A DNA stretch of 63,405 nucleotides, filler included, from Sphacelaria rigidula (lineage: Eukaryota): the NCBI GenBank assembly GCA_964200075.2. It is 6 parts of 6 records of this genome, joined end to end, with 100 filler letters (N's around TTAATTAATTAA, not from the genome) between each part and the next. Parts side by side here need not be neighbours in the genome. Positions count along the whole stretch, not along the records: positions 10,587 to 21,071 come from CAXNAA020006414.1; 5 more parts are not named here. One strand, 5' to 3'. The notes below the pieces were generated by a model. The model had not been told where the DNA came from. It saw only the letters and a program-made list of their open reading frames with translations, and searched no databases. Numbering within the stretch: position 1 is the first letter of the stretch; each line of letters opens with the position of its first letter. Positions 3,643 to 54,073 of the stretch are shown here, piece by piece. A program made the position numbers and the translations under genes.

Positions 3643-5277
3643 CTTTTGAAGGATCCAAGGATTATGCGTTTTGCGTTTTTGTTTCTGAACCCTGTTCGGT
3701 ATGATGGGTAATGTCTGCGATGTGGGAGCCGTGGTTGAGCGTGTTTTAAGAGAGATCGATCCCTACTGTTCGTCGATTGTATGCATCACATGTCCCGTTT
3801 CTCATATACTATATCTATGACGTTGCGGATATTGCCTGATTATTGTGATATGGTATTTGAAATGTCGATGGCCAATGCGGTTACGGGCGTTTTTGCGGTG
3901 AAAAAGTACTGGACTCATGGTTGCCAACACTGGCGTGTGTCCGTCATAAGTCTTTGTGTCCTCGGGTTTGGGAGGCGCACTAATATTTTGGTTGATGGTA
4001 CGAGTGTCCCCGGGTGTGTGCTGTTGCAGTGAAAAAGAATATGTCGTTCCCACGTGACGGCATGTGATATACCGGATTTGTGTGCAGGGGTTTTCACAAT
4101 TGACCCTTTCGGGCCTTACCATGGATACTGATTATTTGCAATTGACGGTTTTCGAGCAAGATATGATTGATGGTTCACAGCTCAGACGCAACAATATTCG
4201 CCCAGTGCGTATTTTTCAGACCCGTGCGAATGACAAGTGGAACAAAATAAGATTTCCTATTTACCGATGTGCCGTACCAGACCCAGGAACCCATTGCTGT
4301 TTTTTTAATGAAATGTTTCAAAGTGTTTTTGCTAATTATTGCCGATGCATACAATTGGACACACTTCATCGGTTGCGTGGTATGATTGGACAAACCTCAC
4401 CTGACCTCTCGACGGAGGACACTTTTCCTGCACCCGCCGCGTGTGCTACTGAATTTGAGATCTTCTTTGGTTTTCTGTTTCAAAAATGGTTGGCGTCGGC
4501 CTTTTCTGTTTCCATATTTCCTCAATGTCGGGGCTTTTCATAATGAGGCGTTCGACCCGAGGACAGGAGGGTTCCAAAAGGGTAAATAAGTACGAGCTTT
4601 CGAAGGATCTAAGGAGCATGCCTTCTTCGTTTCTGTTTCTGGACTCTGTTTCGTACGATGGGTCATGTCTGTGAAGTGAGATCCGTGGTTCAGCGTGTTT
4701 TGACGGAGATCGGTCGCTACTGTTCGTCGATTGTATGCATCACATGTTCCGTTTCTCATATATAACAATGTTTTCGTGAGATTGAGAGTACAGGATATGA
4801 CTGATAGTGATAAGCGATCAATCAATCACTGAATCGTTTCAGTTCCGGAATGCCCCTCCACGAGGCCCGATATTATTTCTGTATTAGCTTGCCATTGAGG
4901 TGCTTGACATCCCTGAGTAGGATATCGACGTGTAGTTGTAAGTATACGGCAGTGATGGAGGCAAAAAAGAGCACACACGGGATGAAAAATTGGCTAAGTC
5001 AAAGCGAATGATCAAAGCCACTCTCAATCCGCGCTCTACTCTTAATCTCACGAAAACGTTGTTATATATCTATTACGTTGAGGATATTGCCTAATTATTG
5101 TGATGTGGGATTTGAAATGTCGATAGTCAACACTGTTACGAAGGTTTTTGCGGTGTAATAGTACTGGACTCATGGTTGCGAACACTGGCGTGTGTCCCGT
5201 CACAAGTCTTTGTGTCCTCGGGTTTGGGAGGCGCATCAATAGTTTGGCTAATGGTACAAGTGTCCCCGGTTGTGTGT
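3643..5277. repeat. Diverged direct duplication of ~380 bp (3643-4022 and 4597-5277; second copy interrupted by a MITE)
   Basis: Shared blocks such as CTACTGTTCGTCGATTGTATGCATCACATGT and AGTCTTTGTGTCCTCGGGTTTGGGAGGCGCA in both copies. Confidence 0.9.
4765..5062. mobile_element. MITE family A (Tc1/mariner-type, TA target site), ~298 bp
   Basis: TIRs ACAATGTTTTCGTGAGATTGAGAGTA and TACTCTTAATCTCACGAAAACGTTGT, TA on both sides. Absent from the paralogous site near 3805. Homologous copy in opposite orientation at 18104-18404. Confidence 0.9.
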
Positions 5278-10486: not shown

Positions 10487-10586
10487 NNNNNNNNNNNNNN
10501 NNNNNNNNNNNNNNNNNNNNNNNNNNNNNNTTAATTAATTAANNNNNNNNNNNNNNNNNNNNNNNNNNNNNNNNNNNNNNNNNNNN
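10487..10586. other. Artificial contig-joining linker (N44-TTAATTAATTAA-N44)
   Basis: 100-bp spacer with a 12-mer giving stop codons in all six frames; identical at five positions. Confidence 0.98.
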
Positions 10587-12347
10587 TTTTTGTGCAACCA
10601 AATACCCCCCCCCCCCCTATCGTAGGATGACTCGGCCATTCTTCATTTGCCGGGCGTTGAACATGTTTCGCCGCCAGGATGACTCCAGCATAGAAGCCCC
10701 GTATGGTAGTCAGAAATTCAATCGGACTCACACAGAATAGTCCGAAGAACTGCTCGAGCAGTCCTGTTTGGTACAAAGTTGCACAGTGCAAACACGCTGC
10801 CACAGCATACAGTACAATGCGAACACCATCACGTACCTGGCTAATATGGTGCAAATACCGTGCTAACACGCACCTGGCTAACATGGTAGGTACCTGGGCA
10901 CCAGATCTAACAGGAGCTGTTTTCTGTCACAGTACGCACCTGAATAATGAACGCGGGTTACAGTCTCGCAGTCCCTCCAGGTGCACAGCACCAACAACCG
11001 CCGCCCATGTGTACTTTGCGCACGCATGTTCGCCGGTTTCCGTCTCGGGCCACTTCACTCTCTAGGAGTGGATCAACAGTACTTACCTCCTGCCTGCGAA
11101 GCCCTTCGTACACAGCATGCCCGCTGTGAGTACTGTATGAGACACATTGACCGAACGTGCGGTACTGTAAGATCCCGACCTGGAATTTTTGAATTTTGAA
11201 ATTTGAAATTTTGAAAAAACAGTCCTCGTACACGGAAGCAGGCGCACGTGAAATGATGAGTCACAGGACGTACCTGTGCTGTCGTGTTAGCACGGAGGGT
11301 GGCAAGCATACGCTGCAGCCAGGTGTCCCAGTTCTGTTCTGCCCAGCCGATGATCTTTTCGAGTAACCAACAGGCATGTAAGATTCTGGCACCTCAACAC
11401 GTGATCGTTGCTCAGAAGACCCCACGCTGAACAGAAAGCACGATTGATGCACTACTGTACACCGTATGCAAAGACAACGCGAAACAGTGCAGCTCTACAG
11501 CGATGCGAGTATGCGGTACTGCTTACATTCTCGATTGATCATCATGTCGTGGTCGAGTCTCAGGGCGTATCAAGCTCGTGGGACATAGGCTGGGGGTGGT
11601 GTAACTACTGCAGCCCAGCATAACCGTTACTGCAGCACACAACGGTGTTGCACCAGAGACTCACCAGAGTTCGGTTCAAACAGTACTACATGCATCGTGC
11701 AAAAGACAGGCTAACTTCCACGTGCAGAAGAGATGCTCTTGACTTGCTTGCAAGCAGGATGTCTCCAAGTATGGCTGATAGCTTTTGTTATTAAGTTCGC
11801 TGGTTGCTAAACCTGAGTGATCCCCGTGGGGTGATATTGTATAACCAGACTAGAATATAACCTGACTAACGTACGGCTGGAATACGACCTATCGCCCATA
11901 TCACGCACATCGAGAACGCCTTCTACATAAGCGACTGATATCCGCCGTCACAATTGCTATCTCGACTCCCCCGGCACTATCCAGGAGCGTAGCTGACGGC
12001 CGTTCATATCGACCCCCGTCTCGAACCTCCACACAATTTTCAACAGAGCCCGCAGAGTCCGCGACTAAGATTGTCCGCCCGGCTCTCCCGGCTCTCCCGG
12101 CACTATGCAGGAATGCAACTGACGGCCGATCAAATCGACCCCGTCTTCATCCCTCCACACACCGCGTAACAGTTGTGTCACCCCGTGACTCAGATCTATA
12201 TCCGGCACTGAACTTGGTCCTTCAGTACCGAGTATAAGTCTGAGGTGTGGGAAGACCAACCGCCAGTCCCTGAGGCAACGGCTTCCCTCAGCGATCGCAC
12301 GCACAGGTAGCAGCAAGCCTTTTTCAGCTGACCCAAATGTTGCTGAT

Positions 12348-13880
12348 GTGAACCTGACCATATCGAATCATGTAATTCCCAATCAATTTGATCGGGCTCC
12401 TTCCCCGCGATTTTCAAGACGCACGGACCTGCCTTCGGCCGGTTTGACTAACAACCGCCCCGACATATCTTCGGCTATGCCCCAACAGCCAAGCTTGCCT
12501 ACGGAAAGCAGCCCACAAGTGTCGCTCCGACATGCCTCGATGCTGATCCCATCCACACAACTGGACTCAGTTGTGGTTTTATCCCCAAATGTTTTGGAAG
12601 TTCCCCGACCTTTGTCACGGCGAAAGAGAAAGCCCCGTAAGCATGCCCCCAAGGACGCGCGCGCATCATTACGTACACCTCTTTCGAGCGGAAATCCTCG
12701 ACCTCAATCTCTCCAAAATGCGACGACTTTGAGCTCGACGGCTCTATCAAGTATCCCGGAAGAAATAAAATCACATGATTCTAACGGCACTACTTCTTCA
12801 ATCGACGACTCCAGCCCTGTACATTCTGGATCCCCCTTCGACGGTGATCCCTGTCAACCAAAGACGATGATTTACGAAATCGCCCCTGACCGTGCCACAC
12901 CTGGAAATAATATACCGTCCACCCCCTTCTCTGGTGAGACATCTGACCCACCGGCGGACAATCCGCCGTGCGTTTTTGCTGTCAGCTCCGCTGATCCTGA
13001 CCAGTTTACCTTGCTGGAACACGGTCCGGATCTTGTCGGCGGCAAAGTGTCTTTAGACCCGGCCACTTTCACTACTCGCGTTGCGATCCATGCCGGTCCA
13101 AACGCTATCACGCCTACGAAATGCGTATCCTTGTTGGACAGCGGCAGCCCGCAAACATTTATTCGAGAATCAACATGGAAACACATGAAACAGACTGGCG
13201 CTGCTACTGCAGCTTGTGAAACCACCACCGAACCTCGCGTGTGGGACGGTTTCGGTGATTCTTCCGCGCCACTGACGACACGAAAATCCGTACGTCTCAG
13301 TGTACAACTATTTCACAACACCACTCGATCTGCCAGCCTGGCCATCTGGGCATACATTGTCCCCGACAGCACAATGCATCACGCCATGTTATCGGGCAGA
13401 GATAGCTATATGCGGTTTAATAAACGAACCTACCGCACGCTTCCACCACAATCGCCACATTCCACGCCGCGTGGAGAGTTCAACCTCAAGCACTTCGGTA
13501 GTCTCCACGGCGCCCTGGCTTATCGAAAGAAACCTCAAGCAACCGGAGCTACTTACCACCTACGATATAACGGTAGTGTGGGTATTACACTTTTCGACGA
13601 CCCCCAACTTTTTGAAGATGCACTAGTTCGCCGAAATGGCATGCCAGCACTTACGGGCCATTATCTTGCCGAAATGTTACCCCGTATTGGCGCACCAGCC
13701 GACGCAGAACATTTTGTGTCGGCGGGACAACAACCCCTTCCTCTTACGGGCCATGCTAACTTGGAACCCGGCGATGGTTTAGGAATCACCGCTGCTCCCC
13801 TGATGCACATCCCACTCGAGACGTGCGTCACAGAGCCTGCCGCGCCAAACAGCTCATCTCCGGCGGAGTCAGTCCATTGT
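12348..13880 (+). pseudogene. Gypsy gag-tail/aspartic protease region
   Basis: Retropepsin motif CVSLLDSGS (~13123-13150) with downstream AMLSGRD. The 649-aa ORF leaves the true pol frame near 13880. Confidence 0.8.
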
Positions 13881-14089
13881 ATCGATGAACTCTATTTCGA
13901 TCTCGCTCTGCGACTCCACCCCAGGTCCACACCGTGGATCCTGCCCAATCAAATTCCGATCCTCCTCCTGAAGTGCTTTAACGCTCATCACCGGATTCTC
14001 GGAGTAGTTTCTTGCTCATGTGGAACCAACTGCCGCAACACATGCGCGACATCAATTTTGACCTTCATGGGCTCGGCTGGGAACCGACA

Positions 14090-15480
14090 GTCATCCAAGA
14101 ACTCAGTGATGTCCTGCTACAGTACCAAGATCGATTTTCCCGATCCAAGACGGATCTTGGGCATTGAAAAACATCGCCCTTTGAGGTTACCCTCCAACCC
14201 GGTGTCTCGCCGATTTCTTCTCGGCCATACCGTACCAACCCAATCCTTACCAAGAAAGTTAACGCCATCTTGGATGCGTATTTGGGAGCGGGGTTAATAC
14301 AACATTTCTCCTCTCCTTGGGCCTCGTCACTGGTGGTCGTCCCCAAAAAGGATGGAAACATACGCATAACCGTGAATTACCAACGGTTGAACCGCGTCAC
14401 TGTGGTCGGTAAACTTCCAATTCCCCGCATTGATGAAGTCTTCGACTCCTTGGGCGAAGGGAAAATATTCAGCACCTTCGCCCTCGCTTCTGGATTTTTT
14501 CGGAATGCTATACACCCTGACACAGTCCAACTGACGGATTTTTGTACCTCGTCCGGACTCTATGAGTGGCTTCGAATGCCACAAGGCGCCGCCACTGCCC
14601 CGGGATGCTTTCAACGCTGAATGTAACGCGTCACCAAGGGCCTCGAGCACATCATCATGTATTTGGATGACGCTATCGCTTTCGATGCCTCACCTATTGC
14701 ACATATACGCACTTTACGAGAATTTCTCTCTCGCCTACGCACGCACAATTTGAAACTGCCTCGATCCAAAGCTCGCCTTTGTGCGACTGACTTGGATTTC
14801 TTGGGGCATTCTATTTCGCCAGCGGGCCTGCATCCGGATACAAACAAAGTCAAGGCGATGACTGATTTGCCGATGCCAACTAACATTTCTCAACTTCGCT
14901 CATTGTTGGGCGGACTATCCTACTACCGTAAATGTTTGCCGAATTTGTCTAAACCGATTCGCCCCTTTCTGAGCTACTCAAGAAAGGAGCTGTGTTCTTT
15001 TTCACCACCGACATGGAGAATATCACCCGCCGACTACTTAAGACGCTTACCGAAAAGCCCGTACTTTGCTTTCCTGATTGGGAGGCAGTACAAGACGGCT
15101 CCTGCCTTTTCCAACTCCACACTGACGCCAGCACAAATAGATTTGGAGGAGTTTTGAATCAACCTTAGGTTGATGGCTCTGTCCGACCCATCCTTTATAT
15201 CAGCCGCGCTACCCTGCCCAACGAGGCCAATTGGAGCCCGCTAGAACTGGAAGGCGGAGTAATCACTTGGGCCATGAAGCGCCTTCGATAATATCCGTTT
15301 CACGTGCCCTTCGAGATCTATGCGGATCATGAAGCACTTGAACAACTCGCCAAGGTTGGTGAACACAACCCTCGTGTTCAACGATGGTTGGAGTTTCTAA
15401 CAGCATACCAGTATACAATTGAGCATCGTCCAGCCAGGCAAAACCAACGGGAACGCAGATCTTCTTTCCCGCCTACTTCT
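14090..15480 (+). pseudogene. Gypsy reverse transcriptase-RNase H (disrupted)
   Basis: SRPYRTNP, LPIPRIDEVFDSL, LYEWLRMPQG, MYLDDAI, FLGHSIS, QLRSLLGGLSYYRK, RVQRWLEFL. In-frame stops (e.g. 14618) and frameshifts. Confidence 0.92.
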
Positions 15481-16439
15481 GCCGCCTACGGCCGCAAATT
15501 CCAGCCCGGCTTGCCGTTTAACGGAACCCGATGAACCCGGAATTCACGCGATCAGACGTTTTTCAACGCCCGTTTACGCCCTCGACCTCCAGTGCCCGGA
15601 AACCGGTATGCATATGGGAGGACCTCGCCCTCTACCATATGACGCCGTCTTGGGTGGGTTGAAGCCCACTACCTCCGATTTTGTCGATTTTCGCACTTTC
15701 GGTACTCGCGCGAAACTCTTCGTGGAGACACCTCCAGTCACCTACCTTATCTCCGACAACACGCGCTCCCGGTCTGCCGCCCGCACCACACCGAGTGCCC
15801 CGCCGCCACCAATAACACCTTCAACCTCTATGAGCCACCCAGCACAAGTTCCACGGTCCAACACACGAAGCTCCGCGAAAACTTCTGCGTCGTGCGCCAC
15901 GCGCCGCGAACAATCTTCGCCGCGCACTGATACAACCTCGCCGCCAATAACGGCGCCGCAAACATCTCCTACCTCCGAGCACGGAACTGACGACTCGTCC
16001 CCTGCTCCCGGGACAGATATTGACGTCGGCATTTTTGCCCCGTCGCCTATTCTCCCGTCGCCTATTCCCCCGTTGCCTGCCCCACCATGTTTGGTCGACT
16101 CGCCAGCGGAAGGTCAACTATGCGAGTTTCTCGCCGGCTACTCCAACCGCGATTGGGATCGCGAACAGAACGCAGAAGCGCTATGTCGCGCAGTCATCCG
16201 GTACTTACAACTTGACTGTCCAGTCCCTTTTCCGTCTACTCTTCTGGCCCCGGTTGGTGCACTGCCACCACCAGTTATTTCTGACGTATAGCTCGTGCGT
16301 AAAGGCACCCTTTTTACCACGGATGAAGACGTGCAACCTCTCGTACGTCGGCCCACGCCCTTGACAGGCGCAATTGCCGCCTCAACTACGAGACGCACCG
16401 CACGACTAGTCAATGACGATTCAACGCGCATATATGTGT

Positions 16440-18590
16440 CATTATTCATGCGTCCCTAGGTCATGAAAGGCTGCCACACGGACTTGTCATGTCACCTTGG
16501 CCTCACCCGCACCCTCGCGCTCTTGGAACGCTTCTACTAGTGGGTTGGCATGGAAATTTCAACCCGCTTCTGGATTCGGCGATGCTTTAAATGCCAAGCC
16601 CGCAAAACTTCACGACAGATAGTACGCTGCCCCGTGGTCTCTATGGGACTCCCCGACGAGCCCGGCCACCTTGTGTCCTTTGATTACGTCGGCCCTCTCC
16701 CGACCACAGGTCGCAGCAACACCTACATCTTACTCTTCACTGATCGCTTTAGCCGCCACGCGTCCATATACGCGGTGACTGCCGCAGATTTCACTGCCGC
16801 CGGAACGGCCGACATACTGGTCCATGATTACATTAAGCACTACGGCTGCCCAAAGCGACTACTTTCAGACAATGGTCAGCAATTTTGTTCAGACCTCTCT
16901 GATGAGCTTTACAAGCTCCTGGGCATCCGCAAAATTGCCACGAGCGCCTACCACCCGAACGGTAACGGTGATACCGAAAGAGTCAATCACACCATGGCCC
17001 AGATGCTCTCTATGGTCGTCAATGACCGCCAAAATGACTGGGACCTACATCTCTCGCACATCATGTTGTCCTACAACAACTCGGACGTTACCCTCGGCTG
17101 CCTATCACCGTGTTTGAGCGACACACGTTCGACGACCACCAAGGATTGGATCAGGATCAGCTATCCTGTCACCAGCTAGCGCACGCGCGACAACGCAAAG
17201 CGTTTACCCTCGTGCGCAAACAACACATTATCAATGCCTCGCGCCTGGAGAGATCTAACACTGCTCTCCACAACCTCATGCACAAACGCCCTAACTGGAC
17301 AGTTGGTGATTGGATTTGGATCTACAACAGCTTGTCGACGATCCGCCAAGGCACCAGCAAGGCAGCCAACGAAACAATTTTGAAGACAAAACTATCCCTC
17401 AATTGGACAGGACCATTCAAGATCCTGACAGTCGGACAATCGTCATCATCACCGGATGAAAAAGCCGTTGGTGACAAACTGCTCTATCTCGACTTACCTC
17501 GCGACTTCCAGGGCAAAGACACCAAGCCCCGCGTTTCCGTGCACAGATGCAAACCCTGCACGAACCCGCATGGTACAAGCGACATGCCCAAGTACCTGCC
17601 TTCCGGACTCACACAGTATGTTTTCAACAGCTACTCGACCAAGTCCCCGCCCTACCACGTTACCACCGACGACGTGACGGAACAGCCCCTTCGGTTGGCT
17701 GTATCCTCCATTTCCGGCCACCAGATAACCCGTGGTCGAGGAGGCAAGATCACTGTCATGTATAAGACACACTGGCACGGTCTTCGGAGAGCGTAGAGAG
17801 CGTCTTGGGAACGCGAATCCGACCTACAATTGCACCGTCGTGCAATCCTCCTGTACTGGACGCAATCCCAACATCAGCATCTTGCTCACAACAAGAAATA
17901 TCGCAACATGCGCCGTGGCGCAGCAGCCCGCGAACTTCACCGCAATCAGGGACTACGCTTTGTCGCCGATGGTTACGAACTTTCATCCTCCAAGACTTGT
18001 AAGACGAGCTTCTTCGCGAACCAGTGACTCCTGCCCAAGGGCAACTGCCTTTGGTTCAAAGGCAGCGACAACCTCTGGTGGTTGGGTCAGGCCCACTCCG
18101 CTAACATCAACGTTTTTGTGAGATTGAGAGTAGAGCGCTGATTGAGAGTGGCTTTGATAATTCGCTCTAACTTCGCCAATTTTCATTTCGGGTGTGTTTC
18201 TCTTTGCCTCTATCACTTACATGTCCTTACAGCTACGCGTCGATGTCCTACTCGGGGATATCAAGGGCCTCAGTGGCAAGCTACTGTAGAAAGCATGTTG
18301 GGCTTCGTGGAGGAACATTTCGGGACTGAAACGATTCATTCACTAATTGACCGCTTTTCACTCTCAATCCTATCCTCTACTCTCAATCTCACGAACACAT
18401 TGTTTAACCTGGTTTCGGCCGACACATACATCGTGCGCTTCATCGATGACCCTGGATCCATACAGCTCAAGCTTCGGCCAGCACTATACACCACCAGCCC
18501 ATCTGCAGAACGCGGATCCTGGTGTCTCCAGCGCCTCAAGTCCAAAGGACTTTGCCGCGGTCTCCAGCGCAACATCGACCCTCACGACGT
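16440..18590 (+). pseudogene. Gypsy integrase with GPY/F motif, chromodomain and Tudor-like C-terminal extension (disrupted)
   Basis: CH...CHLGLTRT...CFKCQ zinc finger; FDYVG / SDNG / TERVN catalytic core; WTGPFKIL; YKTHWHGLRRA*RASWERESDL chromodomain; KGNCLWFKGSDNLWWLG...TYIVRFIDDPG. Confidence 0.88.
18104..18404. mobile_element. MITE family A copy inserted into the Gypsy integrase tail
   Basis: Reverse-orientation homolog of 4765-5062, TA at 18102-18103 and 18405-18406. Removing it restores the frame WLGQAHSAN-LVSADTYIVRF. Confidence 0.9.
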
Positions 18591-19699
18591 CCATGCCCCG
18601 CTTTGGATCACGCTTCTTTGTCACGACTGCTGCCCCACCCCCATTTTTTTCGTAAGCATTGTCTGCCCTCCTTTCTCCACCAGGATCCTCTTCTACAACA
18701 CCACAACAGCGCGACCTACATCGGACGACGATCAAGAATTACTGAGACGACCACTACCTACGGCTGCTGGAGCTATAGTATCCCCTTCAGCTGGCGCTCG
18801 ATCTCGTTGGATCACCGATTTTTAGATTTCCGATCTTGCAGTTTTTAGCACCTTTGGGTTCCCCCAGGTTGAAGCTCTGCTCCCTGTTGTACCTCCCTGT
18901 TTCCCCCCCTTGACTTTTGCTAGGACGCCGAAGCAATGTGTGCTTCTTCGTTGCTCGCGTACACGCCGAAGCCGTTTGTGCTTCCGCGTTTCGGAGCAGT
19001 TTTTTCTGCTCCTCTAAGCAGTCTATGCTTCCCTCCTTTTGAGGTGTGGGGGTGGGTACAGGATTATTGGTACGGGAATCTTAGGCACGGGAGTGTTCCT
19101 TTGGGTATGCTTTATTAGCCGCTCATGACATGACGAGTAGAGAAAAACCTTAGTTTTCGCTGCCTTGAGGATAAATCCTCGCAGCTGTAATAAAGGTTTG
19201 TTTGGGTGGGTTAGTGTCATGAAGACGCATATTAGCCTGATTGTCATGCCGCTTCAGACCCGTTGTCGAGTCTGGCTATTTGCTTTGTTTCAGTAGCCAA
19301 GACTACAGGTCTGCTCAAATTTGGTCGGGTGCGAATGTAGACCTGTATAATTTCAGGGATGATACTGGCTTTGGTCGCTAACCACGACCAAAACTCCCAT
19401 CATCGAACACTACCAACTGCTCCCCTACTGCTTTCCAGCAAAAGAAGTCTAACCATCGGTGAGACGTATTGACTGGTGTGGATTGGATTGATTAATTGGG
19501 TACTGGAGTTGGAATCAAGGCAATCAAGAAGAAGTTAAAAGGACCACCGCGTGAGCTACTTGTCTGATATTCGGACGCTGAGCTTGGGTGCGGCTTATAC
19601 AAGCTATAGCAGCCTGTCGGTTGTTTGCTCGCCCCGAAAGCTTGTGCCCTGGGTTGCAAGCTGCGTCCCTGCAATATACTACCGCTTGCTCTTCATTCC

Positions 19700-20000
19700 A
19701 GTCGCGGGTTCGAGTCTCAGAGCGATCTCGTATTTTTTTCAAACCATGCCCATCAGTGGAGCACGACCATGTCGTGAGTGTACAAAAATTCGAGTTCACG
19801 ATCGACGAGGGAAGGGACCGCTGAAGCCCTCTCGCGATAAAAAATAAGGCTGGCACCGCAGAAGGAAGGTGGAGTACTAAAACGAAAGAAAAAGGAAAAA
19901 GCTCCTGTGTTGGCCTTCCTTTGGTGTGGCCCCGGCTGATGCGCCCAGATATACCGAAAGGCGTAGACTGGCGTCCCGAATAAAAGGGAGTTATCAACTG
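19700..20000 (+). mobile_element. tRNA-derived SINE family copy (5' divergent or truncated; B-box GGGTTCGAGTC retained)
   Basis: Body aligns by eye with 34381-34720 and 53453-53794 (CAGTGGAG, GCACCGCAGAAGGAAGGTGGAGT, GCGCCCA, GTAGAC.GGCGTCC). Confidence 0.8.
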
Positions 20001-21071: not shown

Positions 21072-21171
21072 NNNNNNNNNNNNNNNNNNNNNNNNNNNNN
21101 NNNNNNNNNNNNNNNTTAATTAATTAANNNNNNNNNNNNNNNNNNNNNNNNNNNNNNNNNNNNNNNNNNNN
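21072..21171. other. Artificial contig-joining linker
   Basis: Same 100-bp N/TTAATTAATTAA spacer. Confidence 0.98.
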
Positions 21172-31655: not shown

Positions 31656-31755
31656 NNNNNNNNNNNNNNNNNNNNNNNNNNNNNNNNNNNNNNNNNNNNT
31701 TAATTAATTAANNNNNNNNNNNNNNNNNNNNNNNNNNNNNNNNNNNNNNNNNNNN
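31656..31755. other. Artificial contig-joining linker
   Basis: Same 100-bp N/TTAATTAATTAA spacer. Confidence 0.98.
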
Positions 31756-32415: not shown

Positions 32416-35400
32416 CCACACGAAAACGTAGAAGATCCACTCAGTACGGGGAATTTCCGCGCTATCCTCCAGCCTGACGATGGAGTAGAACAACGCCAAC
32501 ATCACCCTGCGAAAACCGTTGCGAGTGCTCGTGGTCGTTCACTCATGTGAAATTTGTCGCGACACTTCTTCAGCCTCTAAGAGGTCTTGCGACGTTCAGT
32601 GCTCCATGACTTGTATAATCGTAACACAAGCCCAAGCGCTCGCTACGCAGCACCTACCCAAGTATTCGAAGGCATGAGGTGTGCGATCAAATGCATGTGA
32701 CGCCATATCTCACAATTCGATACCTGTACGGTCAAAGTCAATATTCAAGCCAGGCACATAACGCTGTTTGCCCAGCTATACATTGTGACGCAAAGAATCT
32801 CCGAACGAACATGTAACTCAGGAAGTCGAACATGAAGCGGACGACTGGGATGTCGAAGAACACGTCAGGCTTCCCAATCAGCCCAGCGAGTGAGAACTGG
32901 AGTCCAGGTAGTAATGTCTGGTGTGGAAACGTCCACCGAAGGAGTTCAATATTCTTGTTATGCACCATACCGCATTCCCACGTCCACCCTTGCAGAAACC
33001 TGACACCGACAAATAGGAGAGCATGAATATCGGTACATCATGTCAGGTTTGAACCTAGTCAGCAGATGCTCGCAAGACGTTGGCAGTACTGCAGAAGAAC
33101 AAAAACGGAATGGTAAAGCTGACGAGGGCCATGTCTTTTTTGTACAAAATTTGACCAGCGCTGCCGCATAGGCTGCTTCTCCATACGGCTTCTCCACATC
33201 TTCACCTCAAGAGGAAGGCCCAAGAAACTGCGCTTTCTTTGCTTCGCCTGTTGGTACCGTTGGCCGTATTGCCATCATGTCCGCCCGCGGTGCTGATGTC
33301 GTCGAAGCTGTAGAGGCCTTCATTGATGGCACTGCTGAAGGGGTTTCTGGTAAACAAGCCTGGCAACGTAGCTGTGAACTTGACGTGAATGAAGTCCAGC
33401 ACCAGTCTGGAGTTGATGAAGTCCAGCGCAAGCGATCCTTGATCCAGGGCGTTCTGTAGTGGGTCGATCCACTCGGAATACTGACTGTTGTGCGGACGAC
33501 GTATTGGCAGACGGACGACGCGGGTACGAACGTTTCGTTGGCCTCGAGCTTCTTGCAAGCTGCAGAATTGGTGGACTAGCGAGCGTTAGTGACGGGCAGA
33601 CGTTGAGCAGTGTCAGTCGAGATCGTGTGATACAAGGTGTTCGGACTACGGGTGACTCGAGACGTTGCTAGTTCCACACCCTGGACAATAGACGGCATGC
33701 ACTGCAATGGCAAAAATATCTGCTGCAGTACATGCCAATAAGCCATCCGTAATGGCTATCGGTCGACAAGTTTATATTTCTATTGTCGTTGGCAGTGCCT
33801 CCCGATAGAACCCTTTCCCAGACTATAGTCCGGGCAGCAGTCTGTTGTAGGCCTACACCGAAAACTATTGCCGCCAACCGAATGTATCGATCGATAGCTT
33901 CCCTCATCTATTGATGGCGGTACTGGCTATTGATAAACTGTGTGCCAAATATATCGGTGACGACGATGGCTATTTCAATATGGTGGACCAAGTCTATTGA
34001 TGACTGGCATCGCTATTGATAGATTACGCAAAGAATCTTCTAACGGCAATGGGTGTGGATATATAGCTCTACGTACCAGAATCTACTATGGTATACAATG
34101 CCTGCTAATATTCTCTGTCGTCTGTTGCCATATCTACATCGCAACACACAATGTATAAAGCATACTACGTAAGAGAAGCTAGAGGTGAGTATGCAGTGGG
34201 TATGAGTACGGCAGAGAAGCCGCAGGTGAACATACACTTGGTACGTGATGATACCATTTGGGAACACATTACGTCACGATTCTACATTTTTGGAACAGTT
34301 GTATGTTGTGGGGACCCGCAATATGTGCCGACAAAAGTTTACGAGTTTTGTTGGTGGTGTGGTGTTGGTACTCATGGTACCGGTCGCCCCGGTGGCTCAG
34401 TTGTTAATCTCGAATCTTCTGACGGTTGGGTCGTGAGTTCATACCTCGGAGCGGTCTGAGATTTTTTCTGACACCGTGCCCAACAGTGGAGAGCGGCTAT
34501 GTCGTGGGTACACAAAATTCGACAAAACGGTCGACGAGGAAAAGGGACTGTTGAACCCCTAAAAAGAAAGGCAAGCACCGCCGAAGGAAGGTGGGATGCT
34601 AAAAAGAAACAAAAAAGAAAAAACTCCTGTGTCGACCTTCCTCCATTGTGACCCCGACTGGTGCGCCCACATACACCAAAAGGTGTAGACCGGCGTCCAG
34701 AATAGATGGGACGACAACACTTACGATTGTCCTCCTGATGGACATGAGCGCTCATAGGACTTTGGTGCGTGAGTGAGATGTGCTTTTACCCTGGACAATG
34801 GACTATGTAATTTAGCATTGGCGCTGCAAAAGTCCCGAAATTTGACGCAAAGTTTATTATCAACTCTGATCGACTGGCACCACTGTCTTTTGATAAATAT
34901 TGTAGGCGACAATACATTTGGGACAAGGTACAGAATGTGTCATTGCCCTGACAATGAAGGGGCCATGTTTCAGTTGATATATGCTATTTGTTACAATGGG
35001 CTCTGAATTGAGGCCACCAATGTCTATTGCTGATCACAAAAGTAGCTGAAGGACGTCGATCACGAGCTTTGTATGCACAGTGTTTGGCGGACATTTCCAT
35101 CTTATTTCACAGAATATATGGCCAGCTATCGCCTCAGGTAGTTGCGTATTTATGTGTGAGGGGTATCGTCATTCATGTCATAAGACCACTGCAGTGAGCG
35201 ATATATTGATCAAAACCTACCATTGGCGAGGGATTCTACGGTAGGGGTGCACGTTCTACTTCAAAAGTGTTGCGAGGCTGCACACTAAGGCCCAGATGTT
35301 TGTCATCCAGACACTCCGACTGTGCAGAGCCTCAGAAAGGAGATGCGGACCCTTACCGTAGAACCACTCTGGCGTCACTGGCTATCGATAGATGCTCCCT

Positions 35401-42239: not shown

Positions 42240-42339
42240 NNNNNNNNNNNNNNNNNNNNNNNNNNNNNNNNNNNNNNNNNNNNTTAATTAATTAANNNNN
42301 NNNNNNNNNNNNNNNNNNNNNNNNNNNNNNNNNNNNNNN
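42240..42339. other. Artificial contig-joining linker
   Basis: Same 100-bp N/TTAATTAATTAA spacer. Confidence 0.98.
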
Positions 42340-52822: not shown

Positions 52823-52922
52823 NNNNNNNNNNNNNNNNNNNNNNNNNNNNNNNNNNNNNNNNNNNNTTAATTAATTAANNNNNNNNNNNNNNNNNNNNNN
52901 NNNNNNNNNNNNNNNNNNNNNN
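52823..52922. other. Artificial contig-joining linker
   Basis: Same 100-bp N/TTAATTAATTAA spacer. Confidence 0.98.
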
Positions 52923-53350: not shown

Positions 53351-54073
53351 CGGTCGCCCCGATGGCTCAGTTGGTAATCTTGGAACCTTCTGACGGTTGG
53401 ATCGTGAGTTCGAATCTCGGTGGAGTCACACCATGTGGGATTATTTCTCACACGGTCGCCCCGGTGGCTCAGTTAGTAACCTCGAAACCTTCTGACGGTT
53501 GGGTCGTGGATTCAAATCCCAAGGCGATCTGGGATTTTTTCTCACACCATGCCCAACAGTGGAGAGCGGCCATGTCGTGCGTACACAAAATTCGACTTCA
53601 CAGTCGACGGGAGAAACGGAATGCTGAACCCCTCTCGCGATCAAAAATGAAAGGCAGGCACCGCAGAAGGAAGGTGGAGTAGTAGAAAAAAAAAAACTCC
53701 TGTGTTGACCTTCCTCCTGTGTGACCCCGGCTGGTGCGCCCACATATACCGGCAGGTGTAGACCGGCGTCCAGAACAGATGGAACGACAACACACATACA
53801 CACAGTGTCGTGTGTGCAGTGCAGTGAGCGACAATGTCGTGCCTACACAAAATTCGACCTCACGGTCGACGAGGGAAAGGAAGTGCCGAAGCCTTTTCGC
53901 GATAAAACAAAAAGCAAGCACCGCAAAAAGAAGGTGGAGTAGTAAAAACTAAGACTAAAACAAAAAAAACTCCTGGGTTAGCTCTCCCCCTGTATGATCC
54001 TGGCTGATGCGCCCACCTATACCGAAAGTTATGGACTGACGTCCAGAATACTATACGGAATGACAACACACAC
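53351..54073 (+). mobile_element. Cluster of three tRNA-derived SINE pieces: head only (53351-~53430), full copy (53453-~53794), headless body (~53822-54073)
   Basis: A box TGGCTCAGTTRG and B box GAGTTCGAATC / GGATTCAAATC. Bodies match 34381-34720. Confidence 0.85.

Follow-up and report, generated by a model that had tools for sequence, protein, structure and literature searches.

A Conserved Integrase Extension with a Predicted Chromodomain and Tudor-like Barrel in a Brown-Algal Ty3/Gypsy Family

Four lineages of Gypsy retrotransposons have been described in Ectocarpus; three of them bear 'putative C-terminal chromodomains', and one of the three, exemplified by Gypsy-12_Ec32, also has a NADAR domain (PMC12477816, Genome Biol 2025). 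A C-terminal Tudor domain was assigned to Gypsy-10_Ec32, the first transposable element (TE) reported with a Tudor domain and one with 'many deletion derivatives', while the chromodomain lineages of Ectocarpus were placed outside both the chromoviruses and Chronos (PMC12477816). Chromodomain-guided integration has a precedent (PMC11541908). Brown algae are described as devoid of DNA methylation (5-methylcytosine, 5mC) and of H3K9 and H3K27 methylation, with H3K79me2 and H4K20me3 found on repeats (PMC12477816; bioRxiv 10.1101/2021.11.30.470311), which raises the question of what chromodomain-bearing elements recognise in these organisms. Here we analyse a 63,405-base window (the whole stretch of DNA under study) from the brown alga Sphacelaria rigidula, in which an earlier note had picked out a Gypsy integrase tail with a chromodomain followed by a Tudor-like domain. 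This region holds the 3′ end of pol from a brown-algal Ty3/Gypsy family, in a copy that has decayed. Judging from the relatives of this copy, the tail is conserved coding sequence, about 190 residues long, that follows the integrase in intact members and whose predicted fold comprises a chromodomain, a helical linker that is itself structured, and a Tudor-like SH3 barrel of five strands.

A coding extension downstream of the integrase

In the window (Table 1), frame 1 runs from 17038 through the integrase C-terminal region and then reads ...ISGHQITRGRGGKITVMYKTHWHGLRRA, a stop, and RASWERESDLQLHRRAILLYW... (also seen as ...YKTHWHGLRRA, stop, RASWERESDL...). The frame thus continues past the stop in the chromodomain, as the earlier note had maintained. 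That stop had been ascribed to an AGAGCGT duplication. A repeat does add the stop and keep the frame, but it is a near-tandem one of 9 nt rather than a plain 7-nt duplication; its two units (17786–17794 and 17795–17803) differ by one letter, and in comparison with its relatives the window copy has three additional residues exactly at this place.

The tail had further been read as one frame up to an inserted miniature inverted-repeat transposable element (MITE). The frame is indeed kept, but a second in-frame stop, a TGA not mentioned before, occurs in the context FFANQ, stop, LLPKGNC. After this TGA, frame 1 reads LLPKGNCLWFKGSDNLWWLGQAHSAN up to the insertion and, past it, LVSADTYIVRFIDDPGSIQLKL...GSWCLQ, so that the two halves of the domain split by the MITE are just as originally written. 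The insertion and its duplicated site amount to 303 nt, and the frame is preserved. Taken together, the four pieces of the window tail tile the intact tails of the relatives colinearly; with the closest relative, P0001, as a tblastn query, a 330-nt gap in the window faced 9 protein residues, corresponding to the 303 nt plus the loop. Similarity to the relatives stops near 18579, and the frame that stays open onward to 18825 is probably non-coding.

Contigs from four public sequencing runs were compared over 17300–18900. The empty-site joint, from 18101 to 18405 (303 nt skipped, four shared letters), occurred in 4, 4, 8, and 2 contigs of the four runs. At 18025 a letter different from that of the window was present in every covering contig (8, 18, 18, and 1, respectively), and one contig (run X6) was without the 9 nt at 17787. 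Because these contigs hold copies free of each lesion, all three lesions are private to the window copy or to few copies, and the family has lesion-free copies.

The insertion itself has the features of a MITE. Its inverted ends, 28 nt long and 89% complementary, lie at 18108–18135 and 18375–18402; TAAC is found on both sides (18102–18105 and 18405–18408), which fits a duplication of either 4 nt (TAAC) or 3 nt (TAA); a second copy, 82.6% identical, occupies 4764–5061 on the minus strand; and the empty sites come to 18 contigs over the four runs. In the runs compared, the summed contig depth of the MITE was about 10 times that of the flanking Gypsy sequence, implying that it is very abundant. 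Many contigs exit it at 18108 and 18404 into other flanks.

Using the 252 residues before the first stop as a query, we found 47 longer proteins with 41–63% identity and E values down to 1.6e-96, belonging to clusters of up to 197 members. Among the relatives identified in this and the other searches, two are named as Ectocarpus sp. CCAP 1310/34, P0026 has a Nemacystus decipiens accession, and P0038 bears an Undaria label. A simple search for a WWLGK-type motif was positive in 31 of these 47 proteins, which continue past the chromodomain as ...LPxGAxxWYKxxDGLWWLGKI...YIVRFLDDPGPxKIxL...GSWCLQxH; most of the other 16 stop short of the place of the motif or shift frame. In an alignment of 18 complete tails, drawn from both subgroups of the 47, the invariant residues were W136, W144, W145, G147, R163, L165, P168, G169, and P170. 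Those of the barrel include WY in strand 1, an adjacent Trp pair with which strand 2 begins, and RFLDDPGP, with which strand 3 ends. Mean pairwise identity was 69% for the chromodomain, 50% for the linker, 58% for barrel strands 1–4, and 35% for the C-terminal tail.

A profile of the barrel alone (17 rows, P0022 having been left out), searched against 1.84 billion proteins, returned 424 cluster representatives with E ≤ 0.001, of which 192 had E ≤ 1e-10, the best being at 8.5e-39. At the level of sequence matching, the values reached by the tail (1.6e-96) and by the Tudor-like part alone rule out chance. A second set of proteins comprised P0234–P0315, from a word-indexed search, and 29 of the 47 first relatives, picked for having tails. 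The barrel was present in 111 of its proteins. In 91 of them it was preceded by more than 130 residues, and 87 of these 91 joined chromodomain, linker, and Tudor-like part in one frame. The proposal that intact relatives keep the extension in frame is thereby borne out. The domain had also been called 'invisible to ORF callers' (ORF, open reading frame). This holds for the broken copy in the window, where Pfam recognised no family on the tail pieces because the breaks cut both domains, but not for the family, since the databases contain hundreds of predicted proteins with the domain.

Some proteins carry the barrel in other settings. P0051 (373 aa, eukprot g3980.t1), in which TIMP and WSC domains are joined to the linker and barrel, is probably a chimeric prediction that took in a transposon fragment. 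In P0235 (1217 aa, Ectocarpus sp. CCAP 1310/34) an internal duplication of the tail has doubled the linker together with the beginning of the barrel (1020–1087 and 1110–1216). P0059 (612 aa), P0064 (828 aa), and P0204 (832 aa) end in the same barrel and have a conserved N-terminal part as well as coiled-coil-like and Arg/Ser-rich stretches, with no chromodomain, integrase, or Pfam family; from end to end, P0059 and P0064 share 29% identity. These three may represent either a gag-like protein or one of the host, with the barrel in common. When the N-terminal part of P0064 was used as a query, the only protein returned was P0064 itself. Finally, the bacterial repeat protein P0185 was rejected as a relative of the barrel, its match being a short-motif one through nine YTVRFLDEDG repeats.

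Predicted fold of the tail

We modelled the tail of P0001 with AlphaFold2, using the 18-row alignment, and the barrel separately; the input amounted to 17–18 sequences of one family. The two-domain model had a mean pLDDT (predicted local distance difference test) of 81.9 and a pTM (predicted template-modelling score) of 0.71. Its first domain shows the three-stranded sheet and C-terminal helix of a chromodomain (strands 24–34, 40–48, and 55–58, helix 59–75). The linker contains a helix (85–102) followed by a short strand and another helix, with pLDDT values of 91–94 over residues 90–150. The third part is a five-stranded SH3-like barrel of the Tudor/Royal type, with strands at 134–138, 144–152, 159–164, 170–174, and 191–196. 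Modelled alone (pLDDT 90.5), the barrel gave strands 31–35, 41–49, 56–61, 67–71, and 88–93, the last one carrying the motif GSWCLQxH.

When the models were compared with the PDB by Foldseek, the Tudor domains of PHF1, PHF19, and MTF2 matched with E values of 0.024–0.09, a probability of 1.00, and target-normalised TM scores of 0.62–0.70; the alignments spanned 49–50 columns at a root-mean-square deviation (rmsd) of 2.1–2.4 and 18–22% identity. The MPP8 chromodomain (TM 0.63–0.69), Spindlin, TDRD3, and PHF20L1 were also present among the matches.

Exhaustive VIA-align searches separated the two domains. Residues 19–82 matched chromodomains with Z scores of 6.0–7.3, among them Oxpecker (7.3, 59 of 61 residues), Chp1 (7.1, rmsd 1.8), HP1 (6.8), and Polycomb (6.2). 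Residues 121–199 matched Tudor, Agenet, PWWP, and Spindlin domains with Z scores of 5.2–6.4, those of Spindlin-4 (6.4), TDRD3 (6.0), RDM15 (5.9), PHF19 (5.8), and the AGDP3 Agenet domain (5.8) included. For the barrel alone the corresponding scores were 6.4 for Spindlin-4, 5.9 for TDRD3, and 5.8 for PHF19 (56 of 57 residues, rmsd 2.2), and 25 of the top 30 rows, classed by title, were Tudor, Agenet, PWWP, chromo-barrel, or Spindlin domains. For these models, domains of 55–60 residues covered nearly end to end at about 2 Å amount to agreement at the level of fold, not to family membership. The Tudor-like domain that had been proposed from sequence to follow the chromodomain thus has a counterpart in the predicted SH3 barrel and its Royal-family matches.

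Likening the whole two-domain tail to Spindlin, FMRP, or the UHRF1 tandem Tudor was rejected, the long alignments having an rmsd of 9–18. Against the viral models of BFVD, Foldseek was uninformative, with no match at E ≤ 0.001 and an rmsd of 5–27 for the top rows. In the ESM Atlas the nearest named clusters were Spin/Ssty, PTM/DIR17 Tudor, SAWADEE, Tudor-knot, and Agenet, all of the Royal family but all below 0.9 and hence leads only.

Sequence profiles gave links that were weak but pointed the same way. In a profile search of the PDB, Swi6 (E 0.037) and MPP8 (E 0.16–0.17) led for the first domain and the PHF19 Tudor came first for the barrel (E 0.12–0.13). Pfam Chromo appeared in 12 of the 18 tails, with a best E value of 3.7e-4 and 16.7 bits for the first member against the PF00385 cut-off of 25.1, and PF00385 is precomputed on another relative, P0237. 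Agenet was seen in 6 of the 18 tails (best E 0.0047) and PWWP in one; no Tudor model was listed.

Possible role of the two-domain tail

Intact members encode NADAR, protease, reverse transcriptase (RT), RNase H, and integrase, followed by the extension. In active copies the extension would tether the complex of integrase and complementary DNA (cDNA) to nucleosomes and so bias the insertion site, as is supposed for the chromodomains of chromoviruses. Since two of the three cage aromatics are gone from the chromodomain, the Tudor-like barrel would provide the main surface for binding, or a second one. By this analogy the tail probably steers where new copies insert, and a conserved chromodomain–linker–Tudor tail steering integration is the explanation that, on the sequences and models, we consider the best and reasonably likely to be right.

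By profile and predicted fold, the nearest solved relatives of the barrel are the H3K36me3-binding Tudors of PHF1, PHF19, and MTF2. The candidate ligands would be methyl marks that occur in brown algae, namely H3K79me2 and H4K20me3 on repeats, or else H3K36me3 by virtue of the likeness to PHF1/19. A non-canonical ligand is plausible because H3K9 and H3K27 methylation and 5mC are missing from brown algae, whose repeats bear H3K79me2 and H4K20me3.

Several results weigh against the proposal of an integration-steering tail. No PDB match of Foldseek reached E ≤ 0.001. The first VIA-align row for the barrel alone was the translocation-signal domain of TraI (Z 7.1, rmsd 3.4), which is no Tudor, and all VIA-align Z scores were below 8, a middling value by the tool's scale. 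On the 18 tails no Pfam family reached its curated cut-off. Of the 150 cluster representatives listed from the barrel-profile search, 24 had more than 130 residues upstream of the barrel, and the chromodomain was found in only 9 of these 24, many of the others being short or chimeric gene models.

The aromatic cages belong to the same side of the balance. Aligned with Swi6 and MPP8, the chromodomain keeps just one of the three cage residues, the central Trp (W48); the other two positions are aliphatic, with V/L/M/I and I/L in 18 of 18 tails. The chromodomain of ECR-1, a centromeric Ectocarpus Gypsy element, retains all three cage aromatics (PMC11541908). In the barrel, the relevant comparison is with PHF19, whose cage consists of W50, Y56, F74, and Y80 (PMC7105160) and whose Y56A mutation abolishes H3K36me3 binding (PMC12132310). 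In a hidden Markov model (HMM) alignment, which is not a spatial one, the counterpart of Y56 is the invariant W145 and that of F74 is F164 (L in 3 and F in 15 of the 18 tails), giving aromatics at two of the four positions. The position of W50 is occupied by G, A, or S, and that of Y80 by P170 or V171, i.e., by proline or an aliphatic residue. W136 (18/18) and Y137 (17/18) lie three and two residues before the gap equivalent to W50, and one or the other may fill it. As far as the alignments tell, both cages look incomplete.

A more ambitious version can be put forward tentatively, as a possibility short of probable: a whole brown-algal Gypsy lineage would carry a fixed chromodomain–linker–Tudor module acting as a combinatorial reader of the unusual chromatin of brown algae, in which the barrel took over the recognition of the mark from the cage-less chromodomain. 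The barrel, found as well on the Arg/Ser-rich protein of the P0059/P0064 type, would then be a mobile targeting cassette.

The same occurrence can be read differently. The barrel might not be a reader of histone methyl-lysine but bind DNA, RNA, or a host or element protein (e.g., a methyl-arginine or a peptide), and so stabilise the intasome or recruit a factor. The Arg/Ser-rich proteins P0059, P0064, and P0204 end in the barrel in the absence of an integrase; K148 and R163 are basic and invariant or near-invariant; and the fold neighbours include, besides the TraI domain, a PWWP bound to single-stranded DNA, KOW domains, the PcrA/UvrD Tudor, and the methyl-arginine Tudors of SMN and TDRD3. 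With aromatics at half of the PHF19 cage positions, the cage itself leaves room for such a role, although the two adjacent invariant Trp and the conserved FLDD sit where Tudor cages lie, the domain adjoins a chromodomain, and profile and fold alike bring it closest to the histone-binding Tudors of the PHF1/19 type. We regard this alternative as being on the unlikely side.

The confidently structured linker, with its pLDDT above 90 and the pTM of the whole model, would suit yet another arrangement, a composite module with one binding site. The first domain, resembling a chromo or chromoshadow domain with no cage, would serve as a scaffold or for dimerisation, and the barrel alone would read chromatin. 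HP1 chromoshadow domains match the first domain as well as chromodomains do (Z 6.8–6.9), and one cage aromatic out of three is retained, but within the tail conservation is highest in the chromodomain. Moreover, plant chromovirus chromodomains without the same aromatics are still thought to target integration. A single-site module is, in our judgement, unlikely.

Should the chromodomain–linker–Tudor tail indeed steer integration, it would join the fusions of integrases with chromatin readers, which are the clearest natural cases of programmed insertion-site choice. The two-domain tail is a concrete, testable reagent, and it may explain how an abundant family, with clusters of up to 197 members, finds its sites.

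Family placement, the window copy, and known systems

Two relatives of full length, P0228 (2338 aa; in the P0003 cluster at 90%) and P0207 (2184 aa; in the P0005 cluster), contain NADAR, RT, and RNase H along with the zinc domain and the core (rve) of the integrase. In these two proteins and in P0214 and P0264, NADAR and the RT/RNase H/integrase part are joined in one protein with the chromodomain, linker, and barrel. P0264, an 'unnamed protein product [Ectocarpus sp. CCAP 1310/34]', has a precomputed NADAR and the same tail; P0219 and P0045 have NADAR as well, and their gene models end inside or before the chromodomain. The E values for NADAR in P0228, P0207, P0219, P0214, and P0045 were 5.5e-38 to 3.6e-48. 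Because its full-length relatives carry an N-terminal NADAR, we placed the family in the NADAR/chromodomain lineage of Gypsy. The window copy is filed as a relative of that lineage on the basis of its 45–57% pol similarity; NADAR was not seen on it, either by Pfam on the window ORFs or by tblastn with NADAR-bearing relatives.

It is quite improbable that the family is instead the published Tudor-bearing Gypsy-10_Ec32. The C-terminal Tudor domain and the 'many deletion derivatives' of that element (PMC12477816) would agree with a window copy that shows no NADAR. Against this, the pol of the window copy is 45–57% identical to that of the NADAR-bearing P0228 over protease, RT, RNase H, and integrase, and the Ectocarpus relative P0264 unites NADAR with this very tail, whereas in the published account NADAR belongs to a chromodomain lineage, that of Gypsy-12_Ec32, and Gypsy-10 stands as a lineage of its own (PMC12477816). 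As for the idea that the extension is decayed non-coding read-through resembling a Tudor domain by chance, suggested by a window copy full of stops and a frame that stays open to 18825 with no similarity, it is already refuted by the hundreds of in-frame relatives (424 representatives at E ≤ 0.001, 192 at E ≤ 1e-10), the invariant core residues, and the confident fold prediction.

Part of the architecture is already in print, with a Tudor domain on Gypsy-10_Ec32 and chromodomains on three other lineages (PMC12477816). In the literature passages available to us, those of PMC11541908, bioRxiv 10.64898/2025.12.07.692804, and bioRxiv 10.1101/2021.11.30.470311 among them, no integrase was described as bearing both a chromodomain and a Tudor domain, although the TE library and supplementary figures of PMC12477816, which lie outside this comparison, may bear on the point. 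The tandem therefore looks undescribed, and the published picture of the lineage would shift from 'chromodomain' to 'chromodomain plus Tudor-like barrel' if the supplement of that paper does not already show both.

The window consists of six segments of about 10.5 kb, separated by spacers of N with TTAATTAATTAA in the middle, and the integrase tail and MITE are located in segment 10587–21071. By tblastn, the pol remnant aligned with residues 455–2321 of P0228, through protease, RT, RNase H, and integrase. The domain order of Ty3/Gypsy elements is recognisable in it, with RVT_1 and rve on window ORFs and colinearity with P0228. The remnant passes through reading frames 3, 2, 1, 2, and 1, i.e., at least four frameshifts. 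With these, two in-frame stops in the tail, and a loop of the barrel (strands 2 to 3) interrupted by the MITE, the window copy is dead.

Table 1. Coordinates of the features in the window
Feature	Position	Strand	Evidence or remark
Ty3/Gypsy pol remnant (protease, RT, RNase H, integrase, tail)	12918..18579	+	tblastn of P0228, P0014, and P0001 on the window; Pfam on window ORFs
RVT_1 reverse transcriptase, split across two frames	14339..14815	+	Pfam, E 2.9e-08 and 3.5e-06
Integrase catalytic core rve	16655..16957	+	Pfam PF00665, E 2.9e-10, 40.7 bits against a cut-off of 32.6
Integrase C-terminal stretch GDWIWIYN...LSLNWTGPFKIL, which we take to be the GPY/F module of Gypsy integrases	17305..17427	+	translation, coordinates; kept in relatives
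Chromodomain-like domain (LRLAVSSISGHQ...AILLYW), interrupted by repeat and stop	17689..17859	+	translation; sub-cut-off Pfam Chromo in relatives' tails; fold matches Z 6.0–7.3
Near-tandem 9-nt repeat with in-frame TAG (17794–17796)	17786..17803	+	translation, alignment to relatives; contig without the 9 nt
Linker, helical in the relative's model, closed by in-frame TGA (18025–18027)	17860..18024	+	translation, model, alignment
Tudor-like barrel, first half (strands 1–2: LPKGNCLWFKGSDNLWWLGQ) and start of loop 2–3	18028..18105	+	translation, barrel model, alignment
MITE, 299 bp, non-autonomous DNA transposon with imperfect inverted ends and TAAC flanks	18106..18404	.	repeat search, flanks, empty sites
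Tudor-like barrel, second half (strands 3–5: YIVRFIDDPGSIQLKL ... GSWCLQ)	18409..18531	+	translation, model, tblastn, alignment
C-terminal tail, poorly conserved	18532..18591	+	tblastn, alignment; depth of related contigs falls after 18595
Spacers	10487–10586, 21072–21171, 31656–31755, 42240–42339, 52823–52922		adjacent segments need not adjoin in the genome

A direct repeat of at least 60 nt pairing both sides of pol, as expected of a pair of long terminal repeats, was not found within segment 10587–21071; a 10.5-kb segment may not hold both ends, the published relatives being 12–14 kb long (PMC12477816). Upstream of the pol remnant an 80-nt stretch occurs twice (11956–12035 and 12082–12161; 80% identical, 126 nt apart), where one would expect a gag or NADAR part. 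Positions 15401–16291, between RNase H and integrase, comprise about 300 Pro-, Ser-, and Thr-rich codons that matched no family; the same interval in the relatives likewise comprises 370–400 residues. A dispersed repeat of about 280 bp, 76–80% identical, lies downstream of the Gypsy remnant (19701–19989) and, in two other segments, at 53503–53775, 53829–54050, and 34445–34711.

Among the described systems, the NADAR Gypsy lineage represented by Gypsy-12_Ec32 is alike in having, as do the full-length relatives of the window copy (some of them named Ectocarpus), an N-terminal NADAR in Pol and a chromodomain after the integrase. It differs in that, for that lineage, only a 'putative C-terminal chromodomain' has been published and the description, on which this comparison is made, mentions no second domain (PMC12477816), and in that the window copy itself is without NADAR. 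Gypsy-10_Ec32 is also a brown-algal Gypsy element with a C-terminal Tudor domain on Pol, but its description sets it apart as a separate lineage with neither chromodomain nor NADAR (PMC12477816).

For the barrel, the Tudors of PHF1, PHF19, and MTF2 are the best profile and Foldseek matches. Its DGLWWLGKI...VRFLDD parallels the DGLYYLGKI...VTFEDN of the PHF type, and Y56 and F74 have aromatic equivalents. The differences lie in the low identity (18–22%), the E values of 0.02–0.13, and the non-aromatic residues at the W50 and Y80 positions, and also in a strand and a helix added at the N-terminus, a long loop ahead of strand 5, and a context other than that of a PRC2 accessory protein.

MAGGY and Tf1 provide examples of the integrase chromodomains of chromoviruses. 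Like these, the present family has a chromodomain joined to the C-terminal end of a Gypsy integrase, where it is presumed to act in chromatin tethering (PMC11541908; bioRxiv 10.1101/2021.11.30.470311). In chromoviruses, however, the domain is a single one, whereas here a second barrel follows and two of the three cage aromatics of the chromodomain are missing. A likeness can also be drawn with LEDGF/p75, whose PWWP domain tethers the lentiviral integrase, so that a Royal-family barrel links an integrase to marked nucleosomes. In that system the reader is a separate host protein, whereas in the family described here the reader-like domain is fused to the integrase.

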